DNA of 61,451 nt, the filler included, from Bonamia ostreae (Eukaryota): the NCBI GenBank assembly GCA_040357525.1. It is 12 parts of 12 records of this genome, joined end to end, with 100 filler letters (N's around TTAATTAATTAA, not from the genome) between each part and the next. Parts side by side here need not be neighbours in the genome. Positions count along the whole stretch, not along the records: positions 30,890 to 35,926 come from JBDODL010000238.1; 11 more parts are not named here. One strand, 5' to 3'. The notes below the pieces were generated by a model, which was not told the origin of the DNA, searched no databases, and saw only the letters and a program-made list of their open reading frames with translations. Every line of letters starts with the position of its first letter. The first letter of the stretch is position 1. Below are positions 5,160 to 59,803 of the stretch, piece by piece. Made by a program: the position numbers and the translations under genes.

Positions 5160-5791
5160 TGCTAAAACGACATATCTTCGAAAACTAACAAAAATCGACA
5201 AATGAAAAATCGAGAGATTTAATTTAATCTTTATCGACAAAAAAATCTTAAATTCTGAAACCGACAAAATTATTAAGATAAAAAGATCAAATTAAATCGA
5301 AGAAATCGATGAAATCAAATATGATAAAAATTAACGAAAACCAGAAAACGACTGATTTTGGAGTTAAATGTTTCAACTGATCGAGATTCGGTGGATTTGA
5401 TTTGAATATCAAATCCGATTTTAAAGCGGTTTCAGAATCAGTGATTTTCGCACCGCTGAGCTCATAAAGTTTGTCTGAAAAATGAGCTGATTTTCCTGCA
5501 GACGCTTCTACGTTAATTTTGAACCCCAAATCAGTGAACAATTTGATGTTTTCTGGGTCGATGTACGGAGTGGGATCCGCTTCTTTCGTATCCTAATTTC
5601 AAAAATCAGGGATTGACCAAAATTTTTCCTCGCAACGAAAATCGATTTACAAACTTAAAAACATCTGCAATTCCGATAGTCAGAGAATCGAGCGGACGGC
5701 CATTCAAAACGCACCCGAAATTGCGCCTGAACGCCATTGGCCCACTCCGGCGGCCCTCAAATACAGCCATTCGCTTATAAAAACGCAACAT
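5160..5791 (-). CDS. NNT: NAD(P) transhydrogenase, N-terminal part with mitochondrial-type presequence (truncated by contig end)
   Basis: Arg-rich leader MLRFYKRMAVFEGRRS...RRNF, then LTIGI, GFKINVEASAGKSAHFSDKLYELSGAKI...SDLIFK (AlaDH/PNT N-terminal domain). Confidence 0.8.
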
Positions 5792-5842
5792 TATAATTTT
5801 GCCAGACTTATTAAGACATTCTTTAAAAACCAAATCTGCAGA

Positions 5843-7282
5843 ATGCCGAAGAGGATCCCACGAGAAACAGTAGCAAACATTTTGGAAATCCTGACCGACG
5901 AACCAGTTCCTCCGTCCGCCGCCTCGAAGCGCTATAAAAAGAAGTTCAAAAAGGGAGTAAACTTTGGAAGTTTGGGCTACAAGAACTTCCAAAATGTCTT
6001 AAATGTCTGTCCAGGCGTCATGAAAGTCATTTTGGACGGCGAAGAAAATTACGTGAACGAGAAGAAATATCAGAAAAGCGAATCGAACAAACCTTTCGCT
6101 TCCAAAAATGTCGTGGCATTGCCCAGAAAAGCTAAAAATTCTTTTCAAAATGGCTATAAAAATTCTTTTCAAAATGCCACTTTTGACAACTCTATAAAAT
6201 CTTTTCAGGTTGGCAGTGCTAACAATTTTTATCGGAATAGCAAAAATTTTTACGAAAATGACAATTTTGCGAAAACGAAAAATTTTGATAATTCCAAAAA
6301 TTTTTACGAAAATGACAATTTTGCGAAAACGAAAAATTTTAGTAATTCCAAAAATTTTTACGAAAATGACAATTTTGCGAAAACGAAAAATTTTAATAAT
6401 TCCAAAAATTTTTACGAAAATGACAATTTTGCGAAAACGAAAAATTTTAATAATTCCAAAAATTTTTACGAAAATGACAATTTTGTGAAAACGAAAAATT
6501 TTAATAATTCCAAAAATTTTTACGAAAATGACAATTTTGCGAAAACAAAAAATTTTAGTAATTCCAAAAATTTTTACGAAAATGACAATTCTTTTGGTTC
6601 GTCCAAAGAAAATTTTGTTTCAAAAGATAATTTGTTCCAAAGCGATTCAAAATTTGGCGATAAAACAAATTCGACCAAAATTTTTGATAACAGAGAAAAA
6701 TCTATTTTTGATAAATTTGAGTTAAATTTTGGCCAAAACGATTTTTTCCAGAATTCAAAAACGAATTTTGATCTGCCAAAATTTAAATTTGAAAGAGCAA
6801 ATTCATTTAAGAAGAATAATGGAATGGCTGAAAACCAAATTGACGAAAATAGCCAAAATTTGACTAAAAAGAACGAAAATATTTTAAAAAAGAGAATAAT
6901 CGACGAAACAGATAAACGAAACAAATTTCTTCAAAACCTTAAAAAATTAGAGCCGTTCGATGGCGACAAGAAGGAATTCTTAAACAAACAGGTGAAGAAG
7001 GGAGTAGAACTGGCGTTAGAAACAGTACGAAAAGAAAAAGAGATGAGCAAAAGTAGAGTAGAAGCTTTAATGAGTGTAATAAAGTTAACTGAGGAGGCAA
7101 TCGCGGAGATGGAAACTAGCTCTCTTGGAAGATGTCCAGCTTTTTCTTGTTTTAATTATGTCGAGGTGGTTGTTTGTCCTTGTGGCCATCTATATTGCGA
7201 TGGATGTGCTAAAAGGATCAGCTCGCGATGCTTTTTGTGTTCCAAGGAGGTGATCAAGATGCAAAAATTAAATTTTTTCTGA
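5843..7282 (+). CDS. LOTUS/OST-HTH + 17-aa repeats + coiled coil + C3HC4 RING protein
   Basis: N-terminal YKKKFKKGVNFGSLGYKNFQNVLNVCPGV fits the LOTUS consensus; C-terminal C..C..CGH..C..C..C..C is a RING. Confidence 0.7.
   Translation: MPKRIPRETVANILEILTDEPVPPSAASKRYKKKFKKGVNFGSLGYKNFQNVLNVCPGVMKVILDGEENYVNEKKYQKSESNKPFASKNVVALPRKAKNSFQNGYKNSFQNATFDNSIKSFQVGSANNFYRNSKNFYENDNFAKTKNFDNSKNFYENDNFAKTKNFSNSKNFYENDNFAKTKNFNNSKNFYENDNFAKTKNFNNSKNFYENDNFVKTKNFNNSKNFYENDNFAKTKNFSNSKNFYENDNSFGSSKENFVSKDNLFQSDSKFGDKTNSTKIFDNREKSIFDKFELNFGQNDFFQNSKTNFDLPKFKFERANSFKKNNGMAENQIDENSQNLTKKNENILKKRIIDETDKRNKFLQNLKKLEPFDGDKKEFLNKQVKKGVELALETVRKEKEMSKSRVEALMSVIKLTEEAIAEMETSSLGRCPAFSCFNYVEVVVCPCGHLYCDGCAKRISSRCFLCSKEVIKMQKLNFF
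6233..6590 (+). repeat. 51-bp tandem repeat, about 7 copies (NSKNFYENDNFAKTKNF-type)
   Basis: Unit aattccaaaaatttttacgaaaatgacaattttgcgaaaacgaaaaatttt(a/g)at is visible directly. Confidence 0.95.
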
Positions 7283-7429: not shown

Positions 7430-7795
7430 ACAAAATAAAAATCGCAACAAAAAAGAAAATATCGAAAAAGTAAAAATTAGAAAATAAAAATCGCAACAAA
7501 AAAGAAAATATCGAAAAAGTAAAAATTAGAAAATANNNNNNNNNNNNNNNNNNNNNNNNNNNNNNNNNNNNNNNNNNNNNNNNNNNNNNNNNNNNNNNNN
7601 NNNNNNNNNNNNNNNNNNNNNNNNNNNNNNNNNNNAAAATAAAAATCGCAACAAAAAAGAAAATATCGAAAAAGTAAAAATTAGAAAATAAAAATCGCAA
7701 CAAAAAAGAAAATATCGAAATAGTAAAAATTAGAAAATAAAAATTAAATCGCAACAAAAAAGAAAATATCGAAAAAGCAAAAATTAGAAAAAAAA
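7430..7795. repeat. Intergenic ~50-bp A-rich minisatellite spanning a scaffold gap
   Basis: Unit aaaataaaaatcgcaacaaaaaagaaaatatcgaaaaagtaaaaattag repeats on both sides of the N gap. Confidence 0.9.
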
Positions 7796-23694: not shown

Positions 23695-23743
23695 CGTTTG
23701 CATTTTTGTGATTTAGGTCTACAAAAGGATATTAATAAGATAT

Positions 23744-25652
23744 TTATTCTTCATGAATTCGCACATTATTAGAAATTCTTCTTTTCTCTGGGAAGCAACA
23801 TCTGAGACAGCACGCGAATACATACAAGAACATAAATAATGTAGCACCTTTCACAACTTTTGGAAACTTCATTGGTTCTGTTTCTCCAATGTCTTCTTCA
23901 ATTATGTAACCTGCCTCTATTTACTTAATAATGACAAAACCAGTACAGATGTTTTTGACACAATTTAAAGTGCAACAAAATTCATTTTTCGAGCATGGGT
24001 AATTGAGTGGAAGACATTCTTTAAATTTAAATTTAAAAAACCTTCGTCGCAACAACAAACGTTCGAAACAGCTAAATCAGATTTGTCAATCCCATTGAAA
24101 GCACTGATTGGCCCGTTTTTGGATTCTTTCACAAAACAAAAAGTTGACAGTTTTGCGTCAAAGTTACCAAAATGATAATGCAAATCAGCCAACGTGCATA
24201 TTCTTTTCTTTATATTGTATGTTATCGTTTTGCCCTTATGGTCAAAACTTATCATTTTTGTCAGTTTCGAACACGCTTTTTCAGCATTTTTTCGTTCGAC
24301 ATATTCTTCTGAGATTTCGATATTTTCTTTATTTATACATTGATGTACACGTTAAAAGTTCAATTAGTAAAATTTTTATCAGTTCAAACCGTCTTGACAA
24401 CACCAACTACCTTTAAAATCGCTGTTTTTTTCGACTCCATAAGAATAAACAATTTCAACATCGCCAGCAGCGGTTGGCTGCAAGGCAATACCAACACGCG
24501 AAGATGTAAAATCTTCGATGTTTTCGGCGGTATCTATTTCATTGGGGGTGCAAATGTGATAATTTCCAAAGGTTTCGTAAAGTTTTGAACTAATAAGTGC
24601 CCCTTTTGCCAAAATCAACTGAGGTGAAGAGTCGTGCAGAACAATTTTTTTAACATATCCTTTTCCCCAAAAAAGATTTGAATTCGTTGTTTCAACGTCA
24701 ATGAACATGTCGTTTATTTTTGCTTTACAAAATTTTCCGTGGATTTTAAAAGAATCAACTTTCAAATTATATAAGCAGTCGCCATCTTTTATTTCAATCA
24801 TTATGAATTCGCCTCTTTTCACATTGAAAGAACAGAAGTTGCCTTTATAATCTGTTTTCTCGTAAATGGATAATTGGCAAACATCTTTGTTTTTAAACTT
24901 ATAAAACCAAAATTTCCAAATGGCTTACACCTCAGATCGCAATAATCCCATTCTATTTTCTCTGAATTCACGTAACACCACTAATTGAGTATAAATAATA
25001 AATGTTACTAGTAACAATAATTACGAGTTTATACAGTAACAGAGAAAAGGAAATGACAAAGTTGCAATTAAACCGGACGGTTTCGTTTCCCAGAAGGATT
25101 ACGACAAAAATTCCAATCTTGGGCACTAACGTTTTCTTTGATTTTACGAGGTTTTTGCTTTGTCCAAATTTGACAAACATATCCCTTTTCAGTCGTAGAC
25201 TTCGTACCTTTGTAATCTCGTCCATCCCCTTCACAATCTTAGTATAAAATCTATCGTTACCGTCATATTCACCTTCAAGATTTTTACAAAGATAGGTGTT
25301 TTCGGAAATAGGATTATCAATTAACGTAGTTGGGATAACGCCAAAATAGTTCAGATCAGTGAAACAATTGTTTTCTTTCGAAAATATTGTTGTTCCAAGT
25401 ACTGCTTTGAAGTCGTTAAAATAAGCCCACGAATTAGTGCACCCAAAACGACCATTTTCAACGTAACTTTTGAGATCGCTGTCACTGCAAAGACGTCTTT
25501 TGTACATTTTGCACGTTTTGAACGCGTTTGTATATTCGTCTGGTTGTCCAAACACATAAGGATGAGCTACATATCAAAAAAATAAACCGTCGTAGCTGTC
25601 GATGTCGTATTGCGGTGCGCCGGAAAGAATTTTACCGAACAAGAGCATGAGA
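23744..25652 (-). CDS. Kringle/knottin type I membrane protein (paralog 2, 5' truncated)
   Basis: Same module order and shared intron position as paralog 1: YKGTKSTTEKGYVCQIW...NFCRNP, CLPLNYPCSKNEFCCTLNCVKNIC, TM, CCLRCCFP. Confidence 0.8.
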
Positions 25653-27841: not shown

Positions 27842-28744
27842 ATGCCATTAGTCATTTTGTGTGGACTGCCGTGTGCCGGAAAGACATATTGGGCTAATGT
27901 TCTAGTCGAAAAGCTTAAAAATGTATCAAAAAATCCTATACTTTTGATTAACAAAGAAAAGCTCTCTTTAAGCGCTGACGAGCTTTATCGATGTTTTATA
28001 AATTTGTTTCGTACATACAACGATTTGATTATTACGCCAAAAGCGACCATTTCAGAGAAAAACCACCGATCCAGAATAAGAGCAAACGTGGAGAGGAACT
28101 TAAACGCGGAAAAAATTGTCATCGCCGATTTCCTCTGCCACATTAAAGGACTGCGCTACGAACTGTACACGCGCTCAAAAGAAGCGAACACCACAAATTG
28201 CGTTCTCTTCTGCGACGAATCCGTCGAAGTCTGTCGAGACAGAAACAGCGCAGAAAACGTCTACAGCCAAAAGATGTTTGTAATAAGACGATTTAGTTTT
28301 TGCGATTTGGCGAAGCGGTTTGAACCGCCTGAAACTAAAAGCCGCTGGGAAAGTCCCATGTTCGTAATCAAAGTTCGATTGCCATTAATTTAAAATTAAT
28401 TTCCAAAAGGGCGGAAAACCGCAATTCTGTTGGGAAGAACTCACCGATTATGTTTTAAGCGGGAAACGGCTTCGGCCGTCGTTTTCCACTCACAAAGTTT
28501 TGTAAATCGAAAAAAGGCTGAAAACAAAACGTCAACGCCAATAAACACGGGGAAAGTCCTAAAAGCAGTCGAAAACGAATTTAGGATTTTGCTCGAAAAC
28601 GACTTTTTGGGAGCTTCCAAACTTTCGCAAATGAGGCAGATCAGACAGCGATTCATCAAAATGCTCGAATTGCAGCCGATCGCTTCCGAACAAAACTTAT
28701 TCGACTCTTACGCGAGGTTTTTGAAGGAGAATCTTCAACTTTAA
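27842..28744 (+). CDS. KTI12: Elongator cofactor Kti12 (4 exons)
   Basis: MPLVILCGLPCAGKT, IKGLRYELY, RFEPPETKSRWESPMF; introns at 27993-28043, 28276-28296 and ~28373-28409. Confidence 0.95.
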
Positions 28745-31574: not shown

Positions 31575-32139
31575 CTAAAATTTATCAAAAACAGTTCTAA
31601 ATCTCTTAGAAATAAAATTCAAATCAATATCTGCAACAAAATCACATTTTTCCAAATCATCGTTTTTATCGAAAGAAACCCATCCGTAGAAGTTTTGTCC
31701 TCGCGATAATAAAGGATACCAATATTTGTCATCTGGCCACATTTCATTAAACGGCAAATTGTTTTGGTAAAACCACTTCGGTCTCATTTCTTCGCTTTCT
31801 TTTATAATTCCGTTGAAATCCGTGGCCTTAAAAACATGCGATTCGTAGTAAATATTTTGATGTTTGAACAAAAAATGCAGAATTCCGATCTTTTCTATGT
31901 TTTTCGGGACGATTCCGCATTCCTCTTCAGTTTCTATGTTTTAAATTTTGAGATTTGATGATTATTAAAGTACCTCTGATGGCAGCATCCAAGACAGTTT
32001 CGTTAATTTTGACCTTTCCTCCAAAGCCATTCCATTTATTAACTCCCATTCCACGTTTTTTGAAACCGAGCAAAATTTGTTTTTCGCCATTTTTCTGTTT
32101 ATGTACTAACATTATTGTCATCTTATCTTCAAGTTTCAT
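31575..32139 (-). CDS. NUDT1: 8-oxo-dGTPase MTH1-like Nudix hydrolase (2 exons)
   Basis: [21 protein letters not shown]...[26 protein letters not shown]. Confidence 0.95.
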
Positions 32140-32302
32140 TTCAATCAAATCTTACTTTATAAATATTGTAAAAGCGAAATTGGGATTGTCGTTTTATAGC
32201 AATTAGATAAAAACTTGGCAAAATAACATAATATGAAGTTCATGTTGGAAAATTTAATAATTTTGAGTTAAAAACATTTTTTGTTAAAAAAATAATAAAA
32301 AA

Positions 32303-32376
32303 TGCAACCGGAGGGATTCGAACCCCCGAAAACTACGACCTGAACGCAGCGCCTTAGACCACTCGGCCACGGGTGC
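32303..32376 (-). tRNA. tRNA-Leu(CAG), 74 nt, short variable loop
   Basis: GCACCCG TG GCCGAGTGGTCTAAGGC G CTGCG TTCAGGT CGTAG TTTTC GGGGG TTCGAAT CCCTC CGGTTGC A, followed by a T-run terminator. Confidence 0.9.
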
Positions 32377-32430
32377 TATCGTTATTTCGTAATATAAAGT
32401 TTATATGTAAAAATTTAAAAAAATTTAATG

Positions 32431-32895
32431 TCATTCTGTGATGAAAGGAGTAGCGCCAGCAACGTCTTTTATAGAATTGGAATTTTCCATCTGCGACAAC
32501 TCATTTGTCATTCTTGTCAATTCGCTTTCGAACGAATTTTCGAGAGAAGTCACTTTTTTCTGAATGCTTTTCAGAGCCCACAGAAAAGCTTTTTCAGGGG
32601 CGAAATTTGTTTTTGTTCTAATTTTGATTAATATTTCGTTTTTGAGGGGGTGAGGCACTTTGTAGCCGACGAAGACTACGTTTTTTTCGTTTAAAAGTTC
32701 CTTATTTTTTATATGTTTATTACGGTGGTTATTAAATTTCCGAATGTGTGGCCTTCTTTCATTACTCTGAAACATCCCGTGTTGGGCAACTTTGTGTCTT
32801 TTGTGTAAAAAATTCTAAAATTTTTAGAACAACTTTTGGTCGCCTTCCTTCAAATAAACATGTTCGTACAGTTCAGGTTTATTGATATAGCTCAT
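32431..32895 (-). CDS. RPB11: RNA polymerase II subunit RPB11 (3 exons)
   Basis: DTKLPN, KEGHTFGNLI, VVFVGYKVPHPL; 19-nt (32815-32833) and 23-nt introns. Confidence 0.93.
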
Positions 32896-33029: not shown

Positions 33030-35910
33030 ATGGTCAAACCCAAAAAGGATAAAACAGTCAAAAAGAAGACAGAGAAAAAATTGGTTGATATTTTTGATTA
33101 TTATCAGCTCTAATTTTTAAAATGTCCGAGATATTTTTTAAAAGTCGATTTTTCGATAAAAATCAATTTTGTCTTATAAAATTTCGGTAAAACAAGTTAA
33201 CTCCACCGCCGCTAATAAAATCTTTTATTAGTTACTAAAGGTGTTTGCACATTTTTGCACTTTTCAAAAATTCTCAATTAATTCAAAACCAATTTCTAAT
33301 AAATAAATTGGAACAATAAACTGGTACTAACACCGCTTATACAATTTTTTGTATTTGTGACAAAGTTATCAAACATTCGAAAATATTTTTTACAAAAATT
33401 TTTAATTCTTTAAAAAAGCCAAAAAAGAAAATTACTAAAAACACGACGAAAAAACAGGTTTTGCAATTTATATGTAAAAAATTTTAAAAATGCCATTTTG
33501 CCACGAAAAAATTGATACAATTTTTTTGCCTAAAAAATGGCTAAATTAACGCTTTTATAAGGAAGCAGTTTTGTTTATAACAAGATTGTGCCAAACGAAC
33601 GCCACATTTCATTAATTTGTAAATTTTTTGACTTTTTAATGTTTTACATTTTTTTCAAAAATTTGTAAAAAACAATAAACATCAAAATTAAGACACAGCC
33701 CAAAAAAGCCATCAAAAAGAACAATGCAAAAACGTCCAAAAAGATAGAACAAACAAAAAAGAAAATAATCGAAAAAAGTTCTTCAGATGTTTCCAGTTCG
33801 AATTCAAGTGACGATTCGAGCTCTTCGTCTCAACAAGAATCGAAAAAACAGTCCAAAAACCAAATCGATTTGAAACTTGATTCTGATGATTCCAATTCAG
33901 ACGATTCATCTTCAACTTCAGACGATTCATCGGATAGTCCAAAAAACAACAAGAAAGTTAAGACAAACCCAAAAAAAACCAAAACCGAGAACAAACAATC
34001 TACAAAAACAAACAAAAAGTCCGAAAAAACAAAACGCAAAATTGGCGATGCAAAAAAAGTCGAAAAAAAGAAAATGAAAGACGATTCCTCTGATTCAGAT
34101 GACAGCTCCTCCGATTCCGAAGAAAGCCCTCAAAACGACAAAATTGCAAAAGGCGCCAAGAACAGCAACGACCAAGAGGAAAAATCATCTTCTGAAAGCA
34201 GCAGCAATTCTGAAGAATCGTCTTCGGAAGAGTCAGAAACCGAAAAGAAATCAATCGAAACAAAAGTTGAACCGAAAAAGAACACAAAAGAGTCGAAAAA
34301 AAGTTCAAGCTCCGAAAGTAGCGAAAACTCTGAAAGCAGCGAATCTGAAAACTCTGAAAGTTCGCAAATTTCTGAAAAAGCTAAAAAGGAAAAATCGGTC
34401 AAAAAAGAGGAAACTGGAAAAAAAGAAAATTTGAACGGAGAAAGTGAAGAAATGGTAAACAAAAAACGTCTTTTCATTAAAAATTTGTCTTTCGAAACAG
34501 ATGAACAGGGTCTTAAGGACTTTTTTAAGGATTGTGGCGAAATTGAGTTTTTTTTTGTTTGTTAAATTTTTTTGTTTGTTAAAATTTTTTGTTTGTTAAA
34601 ATTTTTTTGTTTATTAAAATTTTTTCGTTTGTTAAAATTTTTTCGTTTGTTAAAATTTTTTTGTTTGTTAAAATTTTTTCGTTTGTTAAAATTTTTTCGT
34701 TTGTTATTTTTTTTAATTTTTTTTGTTTGTTAAATTTTTTTTTAAAATTTTTTTGTTTATTAAAATTTTTTCGTTTGTTAAAATTTTTTTGTTTGTTAAA
34801 TTTTTTTAATTTTTTTTCGTTTGTTAAAATTTTTTTGTTTGTTAAAATTTTTTCGTTTGTTAAAATTTTTTTGTTTGTTAAATTTTTTTTAAATTTTTTC
34901 GTTTGTTATAATTTTTTTGTTTGTTAAATTTTTTTAATTTTTTTTCGTTTGTTAAATTTTTTTGTTTGTTAAAATTTTTTTTTTTTTTAATTTTTTTTGT
35001 TTGTTAAATCTTTTTTGTTTGTGAAATCTCTTGTAAAATGTTATATAATAAAAAGAGAAGTAAACATACTGACAAGAAACGGAAAATCGAGAGGAATAGC
35101 ATTTGTCGTTTTCAAAACTGAAGAGTCCTCCGCGAAAGCAGTAAAACTGGATGGCGAAGAATTGAATGACAGATCACTCAAAATCGAATATTCTAAAGGG
35201 AAACCTAGAACCAATAATAGCAGAGACGCTAATACCCCCTTCAAAAGTTTTTTCAAATTTACATTTAAATTTTTATTTTGTCAAATTTTTTAAATTTTAA
35301 TTTTCTATTTCAACTAATTTTTTGTCAATTTTAATTTTGTCAAATTTTGTTTTTCGCTATCCAAATAAATATGCGAAATGATGATCTTTACGTCCGTGTT
35401 ATTGAATAAAATTTATGAAACTTACGATTTCTGATCGCATTAAATAAAAATAATCCAAATTTGCCAAAACTCCAAAAAATTTTATAAAAATTTGGTTTAT
35501 AAAAAGGAAAACAACCCGAAGACTGCAAAACGGTTTTCGTCGGAAATCTGAGCTACGACGCACAAGAAGATCAATTAAACGACTTCTTCTCCAAATGCGG
35601 AGAGATTTCGAGTATTCGAATCGTCACCGACAGAGAAACGGGGAATTCACGCGGCTTCGGCTACGTCGAATTTTCTGAAACCGAATCGGCCAAAAAAGCG
35701 ATTGAATTGAACGGAAAACAAATAATGTCGCGTAGCGTCAAAATCGACTTTGCTGCGCCCCGACGAAGCGGTAATGACGGCCGCAGATCTTTTAACGGCG
35801 ACAGAAGAGGTTTCCGAGGAGGAAGACGCGGTGGCTTCAACAAAAGGGGAAGAGGGTTTGGCAGAAAAGAGGGGATCACAAAGTTTGAAGGTAAAAAGAC
35901 GGTGTTTTAA
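33030..35910 (+). CDS. Nucleolin/Nsr1/Gar2-like protein (acidic-Ser tracts, 2 RRMs, GAR)
   Basis: MVKPK start, S/D/E tracts, RLFIKNLSF/SRGIAFVVF, TVFVGNLSY/SRGFGYVEF, RGG tail, FEGKKTVF. Confidence 0.88.
34548..35012 (+). repeat. ~23-bp T-rich minisatellite inside a nucleolin intron
   Basis: Unit ttttt(c/t)gtttgttaaaa is repeated many times inside RRM1. Confidence 0.9.
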
Positions 35911-36910: not shown

Positions 36911-37089
36911 AGACCTGTCAGAACGAAAATAGCGCATTAAAAGACAAATTTTAGCGATCATCTGGCCGAAGCTATTCACGCTCAACGCTACTTCCATCCG
37001 TCATCATCCAGGGCTGTTGTTTGTCAATTTAGAAAAGACTAGGAACAGTGAAATGTACTAAAGAAATGATCCTGTACAAGTATACTCCT
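36911..37089 (-). ncRNA. U3 snoRNA (~179 nt)
   Basis: In order: box A'/A TATACTTGTACAGGATCATTTCTTTAG, box C' GGATGATGA, box B GAGCGTGA, box C GATGATCG, box D CTGA; terminal stem CCTG/CAGG. Confidence 0.95.
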
Positions 37090-37452: not shown

Positions 37453-38167
37453 TTATTCGGCTTCGTTAAATTTTGCGACAGTCTCACTCGCTAAAATGTG
37501 GTTTGTTTGATAAAAAAAAACAAATCGGGAGCGGATTTCGAAGAATAAAATCTATTTTTTCCGGTTGAGCACGCTCTTCCTTTTTATATTTGTTTTTAAT
37601 GTCTTTGCGATTTCTTTCTGGAAAAAGTCGCGCAATCGCACTAAAGTTTGTTCCGAGAAGACGTAAAGACTTTTTATTGTTAAAAACAACATTGAAAAAT
37701 TTTTCGGTGTCGTTTTCTGTCCACCGAACGCGTTTTTTTCGTTTCCTCGGATTGGATATTTTGTCTTGGGAGACATTGTATTCGCTTCGTTCTTTCGGAG
37801 TGCTCTTCAAATACAAACTTTCTTCATCGATGACGATTTGGCCTTCGACTATTTTCATTCGAGGACCCTTAAAGTAAAGATTGGAAACGTCGATTTTTTC
37901 TTTAAAAATGTCGTCGTCTGAAAAGTCGTCTAAGAAATTATCCTCTTTTTTGTTGTTTCTATCTGCATCCGACTCTGTATCCTTGTTTGCGTTGTCGTCT
38001 TGTTTTGGCTGCTCTTTTTTTCCGAACTTGGGCATTTGCGTTTTTCCGTCTTTCTTGTTTTCTTTTGCGGTCTTTATTCTTTTCGCCTCCGTCTCGTTGA
38101 GGTAAACACCTTTTCGATCATTGATTATATCGATGATCGAAGTGTAGTTTAGTTCATCTTGATTCAT
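37453..38167 (-). CDS. BDP1: TFIIIB subunit Bdp1 (B''), compact SANT-domain form
   Basis: GPRMKIVEGQIVIDEESL; WTENDTEKFF..LRLLGTNFSAIARLFPERNRKDIKNKYKKEER. Confidence 0.92.
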
Positions 38168-38378
38168 TATTATAACGGCGTTCACTAATTGAATTTGACA
38201 ATTTTAACGAGTTGTTATTGGTTTTGATTTCAAATAATGTGCCAAGACTTTTTATAAAAATTAAAGCTCAATCATGAGTAAAAGTTTATGGAGCCGCGAT
38301 AAAAATGTTCGCATATATTGTCTACTTTAAAAAATTAGCAGCAGAACAAGAACCTAAAGATTTTAAAATTCAGCAAAA

Positions 38379-41161: not shown

Positions 41162-44100
41162 TTACTGAAATGCAGCACTTAAAACAATTTCGGGTTCTTC
41201 AATCTGAACCATGGAGTCCTCTTTCTCGCTGTCATTGATCATATGACTCTCTTCTATTTCAGGTTTAATTTCTTTCACAGATTTCCCCAATATTAAAAGA
41301 ACAATCGCAGCGATAAAATAAACTGAACCAATCGCTGAAGCAACTACCGCTGCTCTCATCTTATTGTCTATAAAAAATAAAATTTATCTCAGTTTTTATT
41401 TGCAAATTTATCTTACTGTTTCCATATTCGCCATTGTTGCTACTTTATGCAATTATTACCATTGTTACTATTCACATGTATTTCTACATATTTTAAATTA
41501 CAAATTTATATACAAACATGTTTATTGTTACAACGCATGAACATATTGTTTAATATACCATGAACAAACATATAGATTATAAAAATTAATGACCTCCATT
41601 GTACATCTCAATGGCAATACATTCATTTTCTCCACTCCAATATTCAAATAAGTCATTCATTTTTACACAAACGGCGATTTTGTCGGGTAAGTCAAATCCA
41701 TATGCACACTTTATATAAACTTGGTCTCCTACGATTGCGTTATTTGCATAAGAATGGCCGAAAAGAGCTCTCTTCTCAAAATTTTTACAGCCTTTTATCA
41801 TCTGACATTCTGTGCCGTTACTAGGATACCAGCTGCCACCATTGACATCTTCTCTGCAAGTGACGGGTTGATTAAAAGGTTTGTTATAACCTTCGCAGCA
41901 AGAGTACTTTAAGTTTGTACCAATTGATCTATCTCCAACGTCAACACTTCCCCAATCACCTTCAGGAATCGAAGGGCAATATTCGTTTATGGCTAATTTA
42001 AATTTTTACATTTATAAAATAAGTTTGACAACAATAAAAATAATTTTCGAATATTGGAAATAAAATTTAAACTTTCGCATTTTGTGACACCAACAAATAT
42101 CAAATCAAATTTTGTAGAACCCGTCCGATTACAGACAGCTGGGTCTCCTTTGATAATGTATCCATTTCTGCAATTTAGAACAATGACCATATTTTCAGTA
42201 TATATTTTTTCCTCGACTGTTCCCCAACTACCGTTCTCCGGTAATGGACAAGTTGGCACAGTTTCTTGTTTTTAAAATATGGAACCTGTACAATTCGTCT
42301 CCCCATTCCATTCTAATTTCTGCTTAACTTCATTGAAAACACAAACGGTTTCTTTGGAAGGAGGGACGAAATGTTCTATGCAGTCAAAAATAAGTACTGA
42401 GTTTATTTCATAATTTGGTTTTCCTTTTGCTGACCCCCAATCCCCATTCACAACAGGACAATCGACTTTAATCAAATTAAAAAACGGTAGCACTGAACAG
42501 CTCCATTCGCCCATTGACCCTTGCCTTCTATTATGGCACATTCAGCGCTTTCTTTTACATGAGAAAAATTTTTCTTACAATCGATCTTCAAAATAGTTCC
42601 CAATGACGCATCTCCAACATCAACGGTTCCCCAATCACCATTAGATAATGGTGGACAAAAGTTCTCCATTACTTTTATTAATTAATTATGTTTTGTTAAA
42701 ACGAGAGCATTGAAGCGCATCTTCCGGTACCCAAATGCCTTTGTTTTGACCACTATCTTCACACTTTGCGGGAGCCCCACTTGGCAATTTATAACCAATA
42801 GTGCAATTGTACTGCAAAAATGTATCGATTGTTCTGTTACCAGTTATTACAATTCCCCATTTTCCGTTTTCAAGTGAAGGGCAAAAATTAACAATTTCTT
42901 TTTTACAAAATAATGATCGAATTTGTTTAATATTGAAATTGGACAATTTTCAATTTCGAAATTAAAACTTTTACAGCTCAAATCCCCAACCCAAATTAAT
43001 TTGTTACCAGATATTTGACAAACAGTTTTATCTTCTGGTTCTTCATAACCATCGCTGCAATAAAACATCAAAATAGCTCCAACCTCCGAACCTGGATTAG
43101 CTTTTGCGCTGCCCCAAACAGTTTTCTCTATATCTACACAACCTTTTATCACTATAATTAATAGAGATGATTAAACGTTTGCAATATGTCCCTTCTTCTG
43201 GATACCATACTCCTTTGTTATTCTGACTGATGCATACCGCCGGAACAATGTCTATGTAATAACCTTCTTTGCAGATTAATGACAATTTTGTATCTATTTT
43301 GCGATCTCCACTCGTAACATTCCCCCATGTACCGTTCAATAAATGAGGGCAAAAATCAACAATTTCTTTTATTAAAAAAATGGTTACTGGAGCAATCAGT
43401 CCGCCCGTTCCAATACAAATCTCGATTTTTTAAATTCAGTTTACATTTTGGAATATTTTCAGGAGGTTGATAACCAACTTCGCAATCAAAATATAACTCT
43501 GCATCGAGTTCATTGTTTGGATACCCGTAAGAATTTCCCCAAGTACTAGAGTGATTTAAGCAATTTTCTTTTTGTATTGAATATTTATGTTATTGTTGAA
43601 TATTGTTTTATTTGAATACTGAGTTTATTGTTTGTATCTTTAATAATGTATTTGTTTTACTGCTAAATGCGAAAACTTGAGCAAATAGACGCTTTGTCCG
43701 GATTCCATATTGCATTGTTCTCTAAATTTAGAATACAATCAGCGGGCTCTAAAGTTAAAGAATACCCTTTGTTACAACTCAATTCTAGAACTGATCCCAA
43801 CGAATAACTTTTTATCTTAACCGAACCCCAAAAACCATCTTCCAACTCAGGACATTCGTCTTCAATTAATTCACATTCCGATTTTCCAACCCACTCTAAA
43901 AAATCCCCATTCATTAGACATTTCGCAGAAGTACCTGGAGGGCGGTAATATCCAGCGCATTTGTAAACTAAGACGGAATTTATTATATTTCCGTTTGTTC
44001 CATACGCGTAACCCCAGTTCCCCGTAACATTGACGCATTTAAGTGCTTAAAGTTAACAAATGTATTAAAAATATGAAAAACTATGATTTTTTTGTGTAAA

Positions 44101-46076
44101 AAATTAATTTTTAGATTGAAAGTAAACGGAAGCATTTGATGCCATCTGAAGGTAACCAAACGCCCTTTGTACTATCATCCCTACATATCGCATTTTCAGT
44201 AACCATTTTATATCCTTTGTTGCAAACAATATCTACTTCCACGTTTATTGTTCTGTCTTTTGTATCAACTTGTCCCCAATTTCCGTTTTCCAAAACCGGG
44301 CAGAAATTTGAAATGACTTTTAATTTTATTAAAAAAACGTTGACATTCTATGTCCCCTTCCCAATCTAAAGAATCAGATTCGTTTTTATAGATACATGTA
44401 GCTGCATCGGAGGGTTTTTTGTATCCATTCTTACATTCATAAACTAGTTTGGAGTTTATTTTGTTATTAGGGTAACCGTGCGAGTTACCCCAAAGTCCAG
44501 TATTGTTTTTGCAATTCTCTTTTCAATGATTTTTTTGAATGTTTAAAAATTGAAGAATTTAAGTTAATATTAGTAACCAACACATTTCTTTGCACCGTTA
44601 TTCCAGTCAAGATGATCTGATTCTGGGGCACAGATGGCCGGATCATCAAAAATTGAATATCCTTCTTTGCAATGTATTTTCAAAATAGTATCTTTTTTTC
44701 TATTTCCGACATCAACAATTCCCCACTCTCCATTTTCAATTTCAGGACATTTTTGTTCTGTTTCAATGCATTCTGTAACTCCATTCCATTCGACAGAAGA
44801 TGAGCCTACTCGATTACAAACGGCTGGAATTTCTGGTTTCTCATAGCCTGGTTTACAAGAATAAGCCAGAACTGACCCCCTTTTGTTGTCTGGATCGCCT
44901 TTTGCTGTTCCCCAATCGCCGGTAAGGATTTCACATTCTTTTTCGACGCAACTAATGGCGTCACTTGGAACCCACATAGCTTCTTCTTGGATTTTTATAC
45001 ATTGAGCCGGACCGTTAAGGGGCTCCGTGTAATAATTCGAGCAATGGTATTTTAAAACTGCTCCCAAGTATTTGTTACCTGTATTTACATAGCCCCATCC
45101 GCCGTGGGGTATATCGGGGCATTTTTCTTTATCTTTTTAACAATATTTTTATTTTTTCGCAAAAATGAAATTACAAAATTTATAAAGAAAGGATACAACA
45201 TAAGAATTTCACAAAAGAATAAAATCAACCAATTTTCGTGCACTTTATTTCGCCGTTCCATTCCACAACTTTTTGATAATTGTCCTCCACACAAATAGTT
45301 TTTTTCTCGGGCTCTTTATACCCGTCCGCGCATTCGAACACTAGTTCTGCTCCGGCCATATTATCTGGATTGCCATAAGCAAATCCCCATTTTCCAGTGA
45401 CATTGGGACAAATCGCAGTATTCTGATTGCAAAGAGATTTGATATAACGATATGTCATTGACGCGCTTTTCCAGTAATTTTCTTTGAACGCTAAATTAGC
45501 CACCGGTTCAGAAAACGACTTTGTGAGATCAATCAATTGTTGTTCCAAACTTTTATCTGCCTGTCTGACGACAGTGCTCATTATACTCGAAATAATGACA
45601 TTTTCGTCATACAAATAGGTTTTTTCTTCATTAATATTGCCAGAAACGTACATTATTAATGCATTCGCCGATCTCACATCTTGCATCACGAGTTTATTGG
45701 TTTTGAAATCGGCTTCATTGAGACATGTAGATGGTTTAAGACCAGCACATTTGCAGTTTAAGTCCTTCGTTGTCGCATATTTAAGAGTTTTCGGAATGCC
45801 GTTATTGTATTCTAGAGCACTTTTAATATAAAAGTTGATGTCTTTATCAGCTTCAAGAAAATTTTGCAAAGTTTCGAAGTACATTAATTCCTTAAAATAG
45901 GAATCACCACAAGTACGCTCATCCGAACATATATTGTACGATTGGGAAACACAAAAAATCAAATTGACATAACAAAACTGATCTCTATTCATCGGATCTA
46001 TTTTCTAATTATAATTACCAATAATTGTATACGCACACAAGAACGATAAAAAGATGATGGATTTATAACTCCACAT
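41162..46076 (-). CDS. Large type I surface protein: signal peptide, vWA-like domain, 17 sushi/CCP-like repeats, TM, acidic tail
   Basis: 17 modules C-x(5-8)-WG...C..GY...C...W...C counted across exons; N-terminal CYVNLIFCVSQSYNI / ALIMYVSG is vWA-like; TM AAVVASAIGSVYFIAAIVLLILG. Confidence 0.85.
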
Positions 46077-48021: not shown

Positions 48022-50173
<2,152 letters not shown>

Positions 50174-52287: not shown

Positions 52288-54632
52288 ATGTCAAAACTGG
52301 CGAATCTCAGACAAACTCTTCGAAACCTCAAAATCGACGCGTTCATTATTCCGACCAAAGACGCGCACAACGTTCAAATCGTTATTTCCGTAGAGCGAAT
52401 ACATTGCGAGCAGAGACAAGCGCCGCGAGTTCATTTCCGGGTTCAGCGGGTCCGCGGGGACTGCTGTCGTGACCATGGAGCGCGCTTTGCTGTGGGTCGA
52501 CCCCCGCTACTGGTTGGCCGCCGAACTCCAAACCGACAGAAAATTTTGGGAAATCGTCAGAATGGGCCAGAAAAACGCGCCTTCGCTTACTGAATGGCTG
52601 TCTGAGAACTTGTCTGAAGACTCTGTGCTTGGTTTCGACCCGTTTCTGACATCTGCCCGAGAACACAAAACGTGGAAACACAAATTGCGCAAAATAAGAG
52701 TTCGAGCTGTGCCGAAAAATCCCGTCGATTTGATCTGGGACGAACAGCCAAAATATCCCGTCGAAAAAATATTCGTCCACACCTTAAAGTTTTCTGGGAA
52801 TTTTAAGGTATTCCGGAAAAGACGCCAAAACCAAAATAAGAGAATTGAAGCTTCAACTCGCGAAGAGCGGATGTTTTGCCTGTGCGGTGACTTCTTTGGA
52901 TGAAATCGCTTGTAAGCCATTTCACGTCTCAACTCGCTAACATTAAAGGGCTCTTGAATCTGAGAGGAAACGACATTGAGTTCAATCCTGTTTTCATCTC
53001 ATATTGCATCGTCAGTTCGTCGAAAACAACGCTCTTCGTGGATCCTGAAAAACTGGACGAGAAAACGAAGCAGTATTTGCAGACGGAGCTCGAAATCGAG
53101 ATAAAAAATTACGAAGACATCGAAAAGGAATTGCGTTCTGTCGGCGAAATCGCGCGGACCAAAAAGTTGAAAATCTCCGTGTCTCCGGACCAATGCAACC
53201 AAGCGCTGTGCGCAATTTTGTCTGGGATCGACAGCAACCTCATCTTCGAGCAAAGGTCGCCCGTGGAATTGAGCAAAGCTGTCAAAAACGACGTCGAAAT
53301 CGACGGGATGATAAACAGCCATATCAGAGACGGCGCGGCGAAAGTTGTTTTTGCTATTTCCACAGACTGCTTGGATGGCGTGGCTGGAAGAAGCAATGGC
53401 CGAAAAGGATTTGAAATTGACTGAAATTGATGTGGCGGACAAATTGGAATTCTTCCGAAGGTCGATTAGAAAATTTTTATTTTTTGCAAACTTTTTTTTA
53501 ATTATTTTTTTCTGGAAATTTTTATTTTTTTGAAATCGATAAAAAAAATTTTCATTTTTCTGGAAATTTTTATTTTGTGGAAACTTTTATTTTTTTAATT
53601 TTTTTCTGGAAATTTTTATTTTTTGAAAACTTTTATTTTTTTAATTATTTTTTTCTGGAAATTTTTATTTTTTGGAAACTTTTATTTTTTAATTATTTTT
53701 TTCTGGAAATTTTTATTTTTTGAAATCGATAAAAAATTTTCATTTTTCTAGAAATTTTTATTTTTTGAAAACTTTTATTTTTTAATAATTTTTTCTGGAA
53801 ATTTTTGTTTTTAGTAATTTTCCGAAGATCGATTAGAAAATTTTAATTTTTAGCCGACAAAAAGATTTCAAGGGATTGTCGTTCAACTCAATTTCAGCCG
53901 TCGGAAAAAACGGAGCGATTATCCATTATCAACCGACTCCACAAAACAACTCAGAAATGGACCGTTCTAAGCTTTACCTCATCGATTCCGGCGCGCAATA
54001 TTTGTTTTGCGTCGATAAAATTTAGAGACGGCACAACAGACGTCACCCGCACGATGCATTTCGAGCGCCCAACAGAGGAAGAAGTGCGCCAGTTCACGTT
54101 GGTTTTGAAGGGGCACATTGCCCTCGCGCGAGCTGTGTTTCCGGAGGGGCTGTCCGGTTCGATGCTCGACGTGCTCGCGCGGCAACATCTGTGGAAAAGA
54201 GGGCAGAACTACGGCCACGGGACAGGCCACGGCGTCGGGTCTTTCCTCAACGTGCATGAAGGCCCCCAATCCATATCGGTTTCCAAGAAGCCTTCGATCG
54301 GGCTGAAAGCCGGAATGGTCTTGTCGAACGGTAATATTTTCGAGTAATCAATCGTCGCAGAGCCGGGATTTTACAAGAAAGACTGCTTCGGAATAAGGAT
54401 AGAAAGCGTCATCGTCGTCAAGAAAGCAACATTCGAAGGATTCTTGGAGTTCGAAACCGTCACGATGGTCCCGATACAGACGAAAATGGTTGACGTCTCT
54501 CTGTTGGACGACGGGGAGAAGGAATGGCTGAACGCTTATCACCAAAAATGTCTTGCAAAGTTGAGGCCTTTGCTTGAAGACGACGAAAGAGCTCTCAGAT
54601 TTTTGGAGAGCTCTTGTGCTCTGATTGAATAG
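52288..54632 (+). CDS. XPNPEP1: Xaa-Pro aminopeptidase (aminopeptidase P, M24B), multi-exon
   Basis: DAHNSEY, ISGFSGSAG, DEIAWLLNLRGNDI, DSGAQYLDGTTDVTRT, HGTGHGVGSFLNVHEGP, NEPGFY, GIRIES. Confidence 0.96.
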
Positions 54633-55832: not shown

Positions 55833-56363
55833 ATGTTGAATAAAAACGGAAACGAATTGATTGAACAAATAAAAGAGAGCAGTTGGATTCCTAAATACAA
55901 CGTTTGCTAAATACAAAAATTAGACAAAACTAATTGCCAAAATCCAGAACGATTTAAATTCAGACCATTCAAAGCTAAAAAAGCAATTTGAAAAAATGTT
56001 TCGATTTAACAAAATAGAAAGCGGTTAGAAAAAGAAGGAGAAAACGTGGAAGAGTACAAAGCGACGTTATCTGCAAAATATTGTGCCATGAAGCAGAGCA
56101 TTCGCTGCGTCGTCTCATATCTGTTTCATTCAATTGCATTTAACCGTGAAGAGATTTTCGCCGCGACGCGCTCGAAGACGTGTTTTGGGAAGTCGGGAAT
56201 TATCTGCCAAACGAGTCAGAGCAAAAACTGTCAACAACTGAAAGAGAATATTTTTCAAAGTACTCAGCGTTGATCTCTGAATATTCTTCCGAGGTTGGAT
56301 CAGAAGTGACCAAAGACGTTGAGCCTCCAACGGATTTGTTTTTGGAGATACGCGTTGTAAGGG
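55833..56363 (+). CDS. PSF1: GINS subunit Psf1, 3' truncated
   Basis: NELIEQI, IPKYN, RCVVSYL, LSTTEREYFSKY, PPTDLFLEIRVV. Confidence 0.88.
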
Positions 56364-57062
56364 NNNNNNNNNNNNNNNNNNNNNNNNNNNNNNNNNNNNN
56401 NNNNNNNTTAATTAATTAANNNNNNNNNNNNNNNNNNNNNNNNNNNNNNNNNNNNNNNNNNNNGATCACCGGGTCCTCAACCAAAACCTCTCGCGAGGAT
56501 GGCAATAACGGTTTTTAATAATTGACCTGCCCGATTGTATTTTTAAAATGGCGCATCTTCCGTTAATTTCGAAATGGTTGTCATTGGCTGGAGAACAATT
56601 GACAGGAACTGTTTTTTTATTGGCATTGCCGTAAATCCCTTTAATTTTTTGTTTACACTAAATTCATTTTGATTTTTATTATTTTATTTTTATATTATTC
56701 TTTTGATCGTGGCCCATAGATAATAACTTTAAACAACAGTCAATTTATTTAAATAACTGGCCATTAGTTTAAAAAAAAAGAAATGTCAAGAGAGCGTTTG
56801 TTTAAGACATCAAAATCTTTTAGATTATAGATATTTCGAATCTGAATTTTCAAATTGAATGTACATAAGAAACATTAAGAGTCCATTTTCAGAGATAGAT
56901 TTCTAAAATCTGTAATCCTTTTCTGATTTAATCTACCATCAGATTGAGCAATAGGAATAGTCCGTTAGGTGTATAAAATCGAAAATAACGATTTGCAACT
57001 TTTCAGTCAAAAGGATTTAATTCTCGTTGGGCATAAATTAACAAGGCTGCAAAGCAAATCCG

Positions 57063-58036
57063 ATGATGTCGATGAAACTAATAATATTAAATTTATGCGT
57101 CATTGGTAGTCAATTGTATGGCCCGCCTAGCAAAGCATGTGAGATGATACCGGTTAGAGCTACTGAAAAGAAATGTCGCGGCACAGAGAATTACTGCGCC
57201 ATTTTCGCAGAAACTGAAGGGAGGACCTGCAAAGAATATTGTGAGGCCAAAAACACGATGTGCATAGCATCGTTTAACGAGATCAACGATTCTTGTAGAG
57301 AGAAAGGGGAGGACACGAAGTGCGCCAGCAAAACCGACGACCAAATCTGCTTCTGTCATCTTGACTTCCTGACTTTGTTCCCGAGGAAAAAGGAAGTTCT
57401 GAAAGAAAAAATGATTGACAAAATCATAGACAAAATATTCGCAAGTTTAGCTTTGACCGATAGAAAATAAAATCAAAGAGATCGCCGCAGAAACAGCGAA
57501 CGATATGAATCCCACTGCCGAAGACGATGAATCGGAAGCAGCAAAAGAGACGATTGCCCAAAACGCCACGAAAAAGCCCTATAAGTGCAAAAGGCCGAGT
57601 TACAACTTGCCATGGCGCTGCAAAAGTTTGATTGCATTAAACAAAGGCTGCTCTCCGTGCACGAGAAGCCTGACGAGTCTGAAACTGGAAAACGTCGGAG
57701 GCTACGACGGCCCGATCACGTTACTGCAGCAGTCGGTCGGCGGGAAGATGGTTCCGCGCAACGAGTCCGGGCGCCATCTCGAAATCGAAGGAAAGCTCGG
57801 GGACGGCGTGATAGGCGAGAAGGTGTTCCTGTTCAAAGGCGAGTGCCTAGGTTTGCTTGGTCACCTTAGACGCGACGATCTTCACCGACTGCGACCATCG
57901 CGTGGCGGAGGGCGACGAGGTCGGCGATTGGCGGGTCGCCGGCGGCGAGAGCCTCTTCGGTGGGACCGACCACAGAGACTGCTCTCCGTTCGAGAGCCGC
58001 GTCTTCGCGCGAGCCGACTGCGAAAGTAAATCGTAA
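57063..58036 (+). CDS. Secreted Cys-rich protein (3 exons)
   Basis: Signal-like N-terminus and Cys-rich module (TCKEYC..C..C..C..ICFC); 34- and 19-nt introns join to a second domain ending IFTDC...GD.VG.WRVAGGESLFG...SKS*. Confidence 0.65.
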
Positions 58037-58039
58037 ACA

Positions 58040-59571
58040 TTAGCTTTTAATCTTCTCGAGCCGCTTCTCGAGCTTGTCATTCTGTTTCAGCGGGAACACA
58101 AAGTAGAGGATGGCCTTAGATCGGAGTAGATCAAAATAAGTTTTGGAATACAAAATAAGTTTTGTAAGTTTTTGAATACAAAATAAGTTTTGTCAACAGT
58201 AAAGCAGCTTTAAAATAAAACAGTGATAGCCGACGCTGCGAACACGGCGTAGTAGAAGACGTTGGCCGCAAAGAACTGCTTGAAGGGGGTGCTCGCCTCC
58301 ATGTCGCGGTAGAAGCGGGTCACGTAGCAGTCCCCGAGCTGCGTCGCCGAGACTCGCGCGAGGAGGTGCGAGACCGGGAGACTCAGCGCCAGCAGCAGCA
58401 CCGCGTTCACCAGAAACGCGTCGGCGTAGGTGTTCCGCGACTCCATTTTGTAGCCGACGAAGATGAAGGGGACGATGACGCTGAGCCGCAGGAGCCCGAA
58501 GACGGCCGCCGCCAGAAGGTAGAGCGCGAAGAAGATTGTCACCGCGAGCGAAACGAAGTAGAAGCCGTCTTCGGTGAGAAAGGAAACCTGTTGTCACGCC
58601 GGAGACGATGATCCCGATCAAGTCCACGCGGTGCTGCTCGGAGACCAACACGCCCAGAACGATGGCCGCGACCCAGAACGCGCTCATCAGAGCACTTAAT
58701 GTTAGCGAGCGAACCAGAAGACGGAGAGGGCGAGGTGCGCCCACGGCCAGATCGGGTTGCCGCCTTTGAACTGGTAGGACACCTGCAGGTTCAAGTAGTC
58801 CTCCTTGACGACTTTGACCGCTTCCACGAAGGTGTTGACCGAACTTCGCCGCGAGAAGAAGTTCATGGCGTCGAGGCTGCTTTGGCGAACAAAACCTTTT
58901 GAGGACCTCTTGGCCCGACGCGTAGAGTTGCCGGGCGCGCGCGCCGAGGGCCTTTCTGCAGGCGTCGTAGTCTTCGCGCTGCATCGGGGAGGGCCGGTAC
59001 TTCCAGTAGCAGAACAGAGTTGCCGGAAGAGCCACGAGCCCAATGCCGAGCAGCACGCAGAACGGGAACCACGCGATGAAGTCCATCACCGCGATGGCGT
59101 ACTCGAGCAGGCTGAGGCTCCTGTCGGAGGCGGAGAAGAAAATCGGCAACAGGACAACGAGGTAGACGGCCAGACAGACGCTCGTCCCGACCAGAGACTT
59201 GACGATCCGCTTGCTCAGGTTGTCTCCGCCGTACTTGACGAAAATCGCGTTGAAGAAGAAGATCGAGAACGGCGCGACGAGCACGACGAGCGCGACGGTG
59301 ACGCCGCTGAAAGTCTGGAACAGCACGTCGTCGCTGATGTCCGTCGCCCCGGAGCCGTTGGCGCCGCTCGCCGGGACCGCGATCGTGGTCGTGAAGGCGA
59401 AGGCCATGAGAACGATCTGGCAGTTGGCGTCAAAACCGCTATGAGCTTGGGCGCGATGCCGGTGTCGTCGTCGGGGTGGGAAAAGCGAGTGACGAAGAGA
59501 GCGGCGCAGACGAGAAGCAAAAACGGAAACACGCAGATGGTTATGATCAGAGAAATGTCGTTGCCATTCAT
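58040..59571 (-). CDS. LMBR1/LIMR-family polytopic membrane protein (6 exons)
   Basis: FSHPDD...PKLI, PFSIFF, GIGLVALP..L...RP, FLVNAVLLL; four 19-20-nt introns and one longer last intron. Confidence 0.85.
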
Positions 59572-59674
59572 CGTCCACTTTATCGGATGTTGTTAATGTT
59601 TTAATCGTAGCCAAAAGTTTATTTGGTCTTGATCTGTTCGTTTCCCGAAGAGTCAACTTTTTCTCACAAAATCA

Positions 59675-59790: not shown

Positions 59791-59803
59791 AAAAATTTAC
59801 TGT

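Follow-up and report, generated by a model that had tools for sequence, protein, structure and literature searches.

A nuclear tRNA-Leu(CAG) gene without the long variable arm, a candidate CUG decoder in Bonamia ostreae DNA

The minus strand of a 61,451-base stretch of Bonamia ostreae DNA (GenBank assembly GCA_040357525.1; hereafter the window, within which all copy numbers and tRNA counts apply) carries a tRNA-Leu gene with the anticodon CAG that has a class I shape and, in place of the long variable arm, a loop of 5 nucleotides (nt). We tentatively favour the reading that this is a functional armless tRNA-Leu(CAG), which would be a working decoder of CUG codons. Transcription, leucylation and translational use are all inferred here from the sequence of the gene. 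An initial annotation of this DNA had described a 74-nt cloverleaf with CAG, G37, A73, a TTTTC loop and a C4:U69 mismatch. All of these elements were recovered by ARAGORN and Rfam, and the coordinates given for the locus hold; the strand, which had been left unstated, is minus.

The match of the gene to a tRNA is beyond chance. Rfam RF00005 aligned over the whole of its length (model positions 1-71 of 71) and scored 51.8 bits (gathering score 29; E value 3.1e-8), and this was the sole tRNA in the window to reach the gathering score. ARAGORN at its default settings likewise returned this single tRNA. The 29 nt at the 3' end of the gene occur once in the window, even when 3 mismatches are allowed, and in 0/100 shuffles. 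The GC content of the gene is 62%, as compared with about 29-33% in the surrounding DNA. The folding energy, compared with that of shuffled sequences, gave z = -0.23 and was treated as uninformative. Under relaxed settings ARAGORN made 42 tRNA calls in the window, many of which lie within coding sequence. A 95-nt 'Leu(cag)' obtained under these settings at 23742-23836 was rejected: no Rfam tRNA match was found there at E up to 10, and the drawing has neither G18G19 nor a T-loop, with the supposed arm left unpaired.

The cloverleaf is regular except at two places. The acceptor stem has 7 base pairs (bp) with C4·U69 as its single mismatch and A:U at 3:70. The D arm consists of a 3-bp stem with an added G13·A22 pair and closes on an 11-nt D loop, and the anticodon stem has 5 bp, to which ARAGORN adds a G26·U44 pair. 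The T stem also has 5 bp, the T loop is standard and the discriminator is A73. A by-eye check of the universal tRNA residues found U8, A14, G18, G19, A21, U33, G53, U54, U55, C56, A58 and C61 all standard. The other departure is the variable region. Whereas a class II tRNA-Leu has a variable arm of more than 10 nt that forms a stem-loop, only 5 nt separate the anticodon and T stems here. The length is that of a type I tRNA-Leu, in which the loop has about 5 nt including nucleotide 48: the last of the five is C48, which is able to pair with G15.

The gene is equipped for RNA polymerase III (Pol III) transcription. The A and B boxes were compared with the consensus sequences TRGYNNARNNG and RGTTCRANTCC, respectively (PMC11028032), and agree with them throughout (Table 1). 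A T-rich terminator begins directly after A73; a T6 run starting within 0-3 nt is found at 1.4% of the minus-strand positions in the window and at 2.4% locally.

The body of the gene points to descent from a class II tRNA-Leu(CAG) rather than from a class I tRNA that mutated. It carries C11-C12-G13 together with the C11-G24 pair and A22. Among eukaryotic cytosolic tRNAs, N4-acetylcytidine at position 12 (ac4C12) on C11-C12-G13 is exclusive to tRNA-Ser and tRNA-Leu, and a survey of all cytosolic tRNAs of S. cerevisiae found the full motif in no class I tRNA (PMC11109946). The anticodon CAG, G37, A73 and a C20a in the D loop are all of the Leu type. G37 is a Leu element (PMC9976931), as is C20a (PMC6614811), and whereas Ser tRNAs have G73, A73 is both the Leu discriminator and an antideterminant against seryl-tRNA synthetase (SerRS) (PMC9976931). 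Because of A73, the gene would be derived from a tRNA-Leu rather than a tRNA-Ser. The claim of the initial annotation that this is not an Ala-type CAG tRNA is borne out, since the gene has A3:U70 and no G3:U70, and the absence of an arm together with A73 excludes the Ser type in the same way.

A class I tRNA of some other isotype could also arrive at such a gene if its anticodon were changed to CAG. This is the documented cause of an armless human 'tRNA-Leu' (PMC8450103), and a single change separates CAG from any of the Met, Val, Gln, Arg and Pro anticodons. We give this origin hardly any weight, as the Leu/Ser-exclusive C11-C12-G13 with C11-G24 stands in the body and the 11-nt D loop with C20a is accompanied by G37 and A73.

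Based on comparison with homologues, CUG is read as leucine in this genome. Four conserved genes supplied the 20 CTG codons that we evaluated, two more in a later DDX41 exon being left out, and homologues carry Leu at 16 of the 20, a pattern like that of other Leu codons. The CTG codons L44, L52 and L54 of eS12 face L, C and L in the best solved eS12 (2/3 Leu), and opposite L9, L104 and L108 of the KTI12 exon, chain 6qp0 has L, W and L (2/3 Leu). In the DDX41 exon at 49307-49615, L25 and L63 both face L in chain 8c6j (2/2). The initial annotation had placed CTG at conserved Leu positions in DDX41 (SALV and ECLKK) and KTI12 (YELY), and those positions do align with Leu in solved homologues.

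The largest set of sites comes from an M24 Xaa-Pro aminopeptidase gene, for which 119 of 150 representative homologues (400-800 residues kept, 31 dropped) were aligned to the window with tblastn; codon sites were counted when at least 30 homologues covered them. Leu is the commonest homologue residue at 10/12 CTG sites and at 33 of the other 42 Leu-codon sites. The mean Leu fraction among homologues is 0.57 for CTG and 0.54 for the remaining 42 Leu-codon sites, as compared with 0.03 for Ser codons, 0.04 for Ala, 0.08 for Thr, 0.14 for Val and 0.17 for Ile. The representative P0003 was omitted from these means because it is internally repetitive. It is the top representative match to the aminopeptidase exon and has 708 residues, made up of 14 near-identical repeats of a segment of ~48 residues, probably an assembly or prediction artefact. 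CUG is thus leucine, as the CTG sites match other Leu codons in the Leu content of their homologues. The codon is not rare either (12/54 aligned Leu codons in the aminopeptidase, 3/12 in eS12), and a competent CUG decoder must therefore exist.

Ile is the commonest residue at one of the two remaining aminopeptidase sites (53 versus 43 Leu, of 108), and Thr at the other, the CTG codon at 54150-54152 on the plus strand, where 109/119 homologues have it. The latter is probably an ordinary substitution, since other Leu codons show similar single outliers. It could also be taken to mean that the tRNA has changed its identity, being charged partly or wholly with another amino acid so that CUG is ambiguous or reassigned as in the CUG-clade yeasts; the long arm is described as an antideterminant against non-cognate synthetases (PMC11028032). 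A changed identity is nonetheless very improbable. The CTG sites as a whole behave like other Leu codons, and the gene offers no G3:U70 to alanyl-tRNA synthetase (AlaRS) and neither an arm nor G73 to SerRS. The features of a reassigned CUG tRNA of the yeast kind are likewise missing: there is no arm, positions 73 and 3:70 are A and A:U, and CTG stands at conserved Leu positions.

Taken together, a genuine nuclear gene of the Pol III type probably arose from a canonical class II tRNA-Leu(CAG) by loss of the long arm, leaving the 5-nt loop with C48. TFIIIC would bind the intact A and B boxes, and Pol III would terminate at the T6/T7 run. The transcript would fold as a class I L-shape, with U8:A14, G15:C48 and the contacts of G18G19 with the T loop holding it together. 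Cytosolic leucyl-tRNA synthetase (LeuRS) would then add leucine by means of A73, the elbow and the D loop instead of the arm, and the charged tRNA would read the CUG codons used for Leu in this organism. It could coexist with long-arm Leu isoacceptors, as in Streptomyces coelicolor.

The DNA in which the gene lies is eukaryotic nuclear DNA, since spliceosomal GT..AG introns and a U3 small nucleolar RNA (snoRNA) are present. Together with eS12, DDX41 and KTI12, these features distinguish the window from the organelle and bacterial genomes of type I tRNA-Leu. The initial annotation had proposed a nuclear, cytosolic-type tRNA-Leu(CAG) without the long arm, and this context agrees with it. A nuclear gene could still serve an organelle, if a short-loop tRNA-Leu were charged by a LeuRS of the mitochondrial type, imported into mitochondria, or both. 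Human mitochondrial LeuRS charges type I tRNA-Leu, that of Streptomyces included (PMC6614811), and a Dicyema species has an incomplete mitochondrial tRNA set with 11 predicted (PMC6543705), which would be relevant if the present organism is of that kind. The GC-rich, typically cytosolic body with C11-C12-G13 and the anticodon CAG, which reads CUG only, speak against service in an organelle, and the dicyemid placement is itself conjectural; we regard this role as quite improbable. Organelle Leu tRNAs use UAG or UAA anticodons, which counts against it as well.

The published record on leucylation without the arm is mixed but permissive. The initial annotation had assumed that LeuRS of Archaea and eukaryotes contacts the long arm. 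That premise is weaker than it was put: only in Archaea is the arm recognised by its sequence, and the arm is dispensable in E. coli (PMC9976931), while the variable region is listed among the human identity elements. Minimal arm-less tRNA-Leu variants that have A73 and intact contacts of the D loop with the T loop are leucylated in E. coli and H. sapiens (PMC9976931). S. coelicolor possesses, beside four long-arm isoacceptors, a type I tRNA-Leu(CAA) whose 5-nt loop ends in C48, and a single LeuRS charges both kinds (PMC6614811). The shortest loop with high charging in that system has five nucleotides including nucleotide 48, and the identity of the bases matters little (PMC6614811). Since one LeuRS suffices for both types there, family-wide conversion and a new enzyme are both unnecessary, and by analogy an armless tRNA-Leu would not require a co-evolved LeuRS. 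Eukaryotes hold the two kinds of tRNA-Leu in separate compartments (PMC6614811). The initial annotation had suggested a conversion of the lineage with a co-evolved LeuRS. It is unlikely that in this fast-evolving, animal-like parasite lineage the whole cytosolic Leu system has shifted to class I shapes, with the present gene as the normal CUG decoder, the other Leu isoacceptors armless or becoming so and recognition by LeuRS relaxed or re-tooled. If such a lineage-wide shift were true, a eukaryote would have repeated a switch from class II to class I that is known otherwise only from organelles and from one Streptomyces isoacceptor.

A number of points weigh against a functional armless tRNA. 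The identity set of human LeuRS comprises the variable region, C3-G70, A4-U69, G5-C68 and C20a (PMC11028032; PMC6614811), of which the present gene keeps C20a and U69 only; its acceptor pairs are A3-U70, C4·U69 and C5-G68 where the human identity pairs, reported for human only, are C3-G70, A4-U69 and G5-C68. The acceptor stem is made weaker by C4·U69. Short loops are not tolerated everywhere, because E. coli LeuRS is unable to charge the natural type I tRNA-Leu of Streptomyces (PMC6614811). In other eukaryotes, armless genes predicted as 'Leu' or 'Ser' proved to be something else: human Leu-CAA-5-1 is a tRNA-Met, and the 'tRNA-Ser' of Serpula are repeats (PMC8450103). Normal long-arm tRNA-Leu(CAG) or tRNA-Leu(UAG) genes may lie beyond the window. 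The four U of the variable loop form a T4 run in the DNA, possibly a weak internal Pol III stop; T4 runs can terminate Pol III in some eukaryotes. Finally, an imperfect direct repeat brackets the gene (Table 1). The two copies are identical at 25/32 positions as compared with a maximum of 24 in 300 first-order Markov simulations, a simple null model, and may reflect an old event in which the segment was inserted or duplicated, or a promoter-like element that both copies share.

These points lead to the possibility, doubtful but substantial, that the gene is a pseudogene or nearly so, copied not long ago from a normal tRNA-Leu(CAG) and crippled, with its arm removed by one deletion, and that long-arm copies or a wobbling tRNA-Leu(UAG) elsewhere decode CUG. 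Three blemishes come together in it (no arm, C4·U69 and the internal T4), the bracketing repeat hints at insertion or duplication of the segment, and the armless class II look-alikes known elsewhere are non-functional or mis-typed (PMC8450103). Decayed copies could persist in a genome such as that of a dicyemid, of which 49% is repeats (PMC6736024), if the organism is of that kind. Examined as a pseudogene within the window, the gene is single-copy with boxes and terminator intact, yet has one stem mismatch, an internal T4 and an imperfect repeat on either side. A crippled copy would not be expected to keep the universal positions and both promoter boxes, to stand out at 62% GC within AT-rich DNA or to have its terminator directly at the 3' end. 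The loop has exactly the class I length with C48, the minimum for charging in the Streptomyces system, and a gene with a single-copy 3' part sits in a tight intergenic spacer. On this balance, we keep to the functional armless tRNA-Leu(CAG) as the tentative reading.

The arm may also be present in the real gene and have been dropped from the assembled sequence by an assembly or consensus error. However, sequencing runs from two studies contain 60-97% of the 31-mers sampled across the 2.8 kb around the gene, a share that holds for the stretch and not necessarily for the tRNA itself, and a random collapse is unlikely to yield a clean 5-nt loop with C48 in an otherwise perfect cloverleaf. An error of this kind thus has little probability. 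Many runs that bear the main species label contain almost none of the sampled 31-mers of the 2.8-kb stretch. An RNA run with the label 'mollusc metagenome' contains 0.19 of them, a figure given no weight here.

Table 1. Positions of the tRNA-Leu(CAG) gene, its parts and neighbouring features in the window.
Feature	Positions	Strand	Basis
tRNA-Leu(cag) gene, 74 nt, class I shape, A73	32303-32376	minus	ARAGORN and Rfam RF00005
C4, 5' partner of the sole acceptor-stem mismatch	32373	minus	Rfam alignment and ARAGORN drawing
A box, tRNA positions 8-18, includes C11-C12-G13	32359-32369	minus	sequence against consensus, 11/11 match to TRGYNNARNNG
Anticodon CAG, between U33 and G37	32340-32342	minus	ARAGORN (anticodon at position 35)
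Variable loop, 5 nt (four U, then C48), replacing the long variable arm	32328-32332	minus	sequence, Rfam, ARAGORN
B box, tRNA positions 52-62	32314-32324	minus	sequence against consensus, 11/11 match to RGTTCRANTCC
U69, 3' partner of the C4·U69 mismatch	32307	minus	Rfam alignment and ARAGORN drawing
T-rich Pol III terminator, T6-A-TT-A-T7, from the first base 3' of A73	32286-32302	minus	sequence
32-nt imperfect direct repeat, left copy	32229-32260	no strand	repeat search, 78% identity, spacing 161
32-nt imperfect direct repeat, right copy, 14-45 nt upstream of the tRNA (tRNA strand), TATA-like motifs	32390-32421	no strand	repeat search
KTI12	27842-28390		PF08433, E 5.5e-39
RNA_pol_L_2-domain gene, 55 bp from the tRNA	32431-32814		Pfam match
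U3 snoRNA, full length	36913-37089	minus	Rfam RF00012, 69.9 bits
Myb_DNA-bind_7 gene	37484-38203		Pfam match

The surroundings of the tRNA gene are gene-dense, with introns of ~30 nt, and the gene takes up 74 bp of a spacer of ~280 bp between two open reading frames (ORFs). The two ORFs immediately downstream of it, at 31575-32151 on the minus strand, matched nothing in Pfam at E values up to 0.001; judged by eye, they may resemble a Nudix hydrolase. The protein of the Myb_DNA-bind_7 gene is presumably similar to TFIIIB B''. Genes related to tRNA or Pol III biology (KTI12, RNA_pol_L_2 and Myb_DNA-bind_7) are thus grouped around the tRNA, probably by coincidence. The other genes of the window include eS12, whose best matches are eS12 chains of 132 residues with 94 bits, DDX41, the M24 Xaa-Pro aminopeptidase and Sushi repeats. 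The top-scoring eS12 chains are presumably mammalian, and those with low scores apicomplexan, kinetoplastid, microsporidian and ciliate. The Sushi repeats form a multi-exon gene of Sushi/CCP-like modules at 41500-46000 on the minus strand, in which PF00084 matches one ORF with E 3.7e-6 and similar ORFs lie alongside; such a gene would fit an animal origin.

The aminopeptidase gene has an intron of 30 nt with GT..AG ends at 54331-54360 on the plus strand, bounded by 115 homologue alignments that span it. Recoding of the in-frame stop codon at 54345-54347 was rejected, as this stop falls inside the intron. A second intron of the gene, at about 53462-53854 on the plus strand, has ~390 nt and is packed with T-rich tandem repeats. 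Among animals, ultra-short introns are reported only in myxobolid myxozoans and dicyemids in the passages available from PMC13644364, and in Dicyema japonicum introns average 38 bp and the GC content is 36.7% (PMC6736024). Judged from the DNA itself, the source would with moderate confidence be a dicyemid-like animal parasite or one that is similarly reduced, a placement on which the main argument does not depend. GC in the window rises from about 0.30 to as much as 0.47 at 56000-61000, a region of sharply distinct composition where long ORFs overlap on both strands; one of them has a sub-threshold match to LMBR1 (29.3 bits, cut-off 31.9) and 16 CTG codons. Of two low-complexity tandem repeats, one lies within a RING-finger ORF at 5597-7279 on the plus strand and encodes a peptide repeat rich in asparagine and phenylalanine; the other is a tract of the lysine/asparagine type at 34560-35000 between exons of a nucleolin-like RRM gene. 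Paired blocks of 44 N, 12 bases apart, recur every ~5.1 kb (5060-56463), and with a block of 100 N at 7536-7635 they interrupt several ORFs; their appearance suggests masking more than gaps in the assembly.

Close relatives of the organism are all but missing from the protein index searched. Among 24 candidates drawn from an index of 5.8 billion proteins, eS12 found only itself and one fragment with 73% identity. Exact scans with the 29-mer from the 3' end of the tRNA gave 0 matches in metagenome contigs, prokaryote genome contigs and viral contigs, and a synteny search through the eS12 gene gave 136 pattern matches in metagenome contigs, none of which was confirmed. No eukaryotic cytosolic tRNA-Leu without the long arm was found in the literature searched, with subscription journals and supplements outside the search. 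The passages available on dicyemids and orthonectids mention mitochondrial tRNAs only or no tRNAs.

If the gene were shown to work, it would be the first armless tRNA-Leu for the eukaryotic cytosol. A LeuRS of the eukaryotic (archaeal) type would then be able to dispense with the arm in vivo, and the gene would constitute a natural experiment on the conversion of class II to class I tRNA. It would also bear on how Ser and Leu tRNAs are told apart by SerRS, LeuRS and modification enzymes. For annotation, it would raise the issue that tRNA finders and isotype models may label such genes as pseudogenes in reduced parasite genomes. As a dead copy, the gene would be an ordinary footnote only.

Among known systems, the type I tRNA-Leu(CAA) of S. 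coelicolor (PMC6614811) resembles the present gene in being non-organellar and in having a 5-nt loop with C48 as its last base. Unlike here, it is charged by a bacterial LeuRS with a leucine-specific domain, has the anticodon CAA and makes no use of A73, and its function was shown experimentally, whereas in the present case function is deduced from the gene. Animal mitochondrial type I tRNA-Leu also combines a short variable loop with A73, and the LeuRS that charges it can do so without an arm. It is, however, encoded in the organelle, and has an AT-rich sequence, a loose structure and UAG or UAA anticodons. The present gene is nuclear and GC-rich; its D and T loops are canonical, and it has the cytosolic C11-C12-G13.

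With the canonical cytosolic tRNA-Leu(CAG), the gene shares the anticodon arm with G37, a C20a within an 11-nt D loop, C11-C12-G13, A73 and Pol III boxes that are intact; it differs in having no long variable arm, and at 3:70, 4:69 and 5:68 it departs from the human set. A Leu anticodon without a long arm is also found among the armless genome predictions with Leu or Ser anticodons (PMC8450103). Those have Met or Thr bodies or are high-copy repeats with identical flanks, whereas the present gene has a Leu-type body and a 3' part that is single-copy in the window. The nev-tRNAs of nematodes (PMC3333845, PMC4033280) are similar in that a lineage-specific mismatch between tRNA class and anticodon occurs in a nuclear genome and involves LeuRS. 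They are the converse case: in nematodes a long arm was added to tRNAs with Gly or Ile anticodons, which are charged with Leu, whereas here the arm would have been removed from a tRNA with a Leu anticodon.

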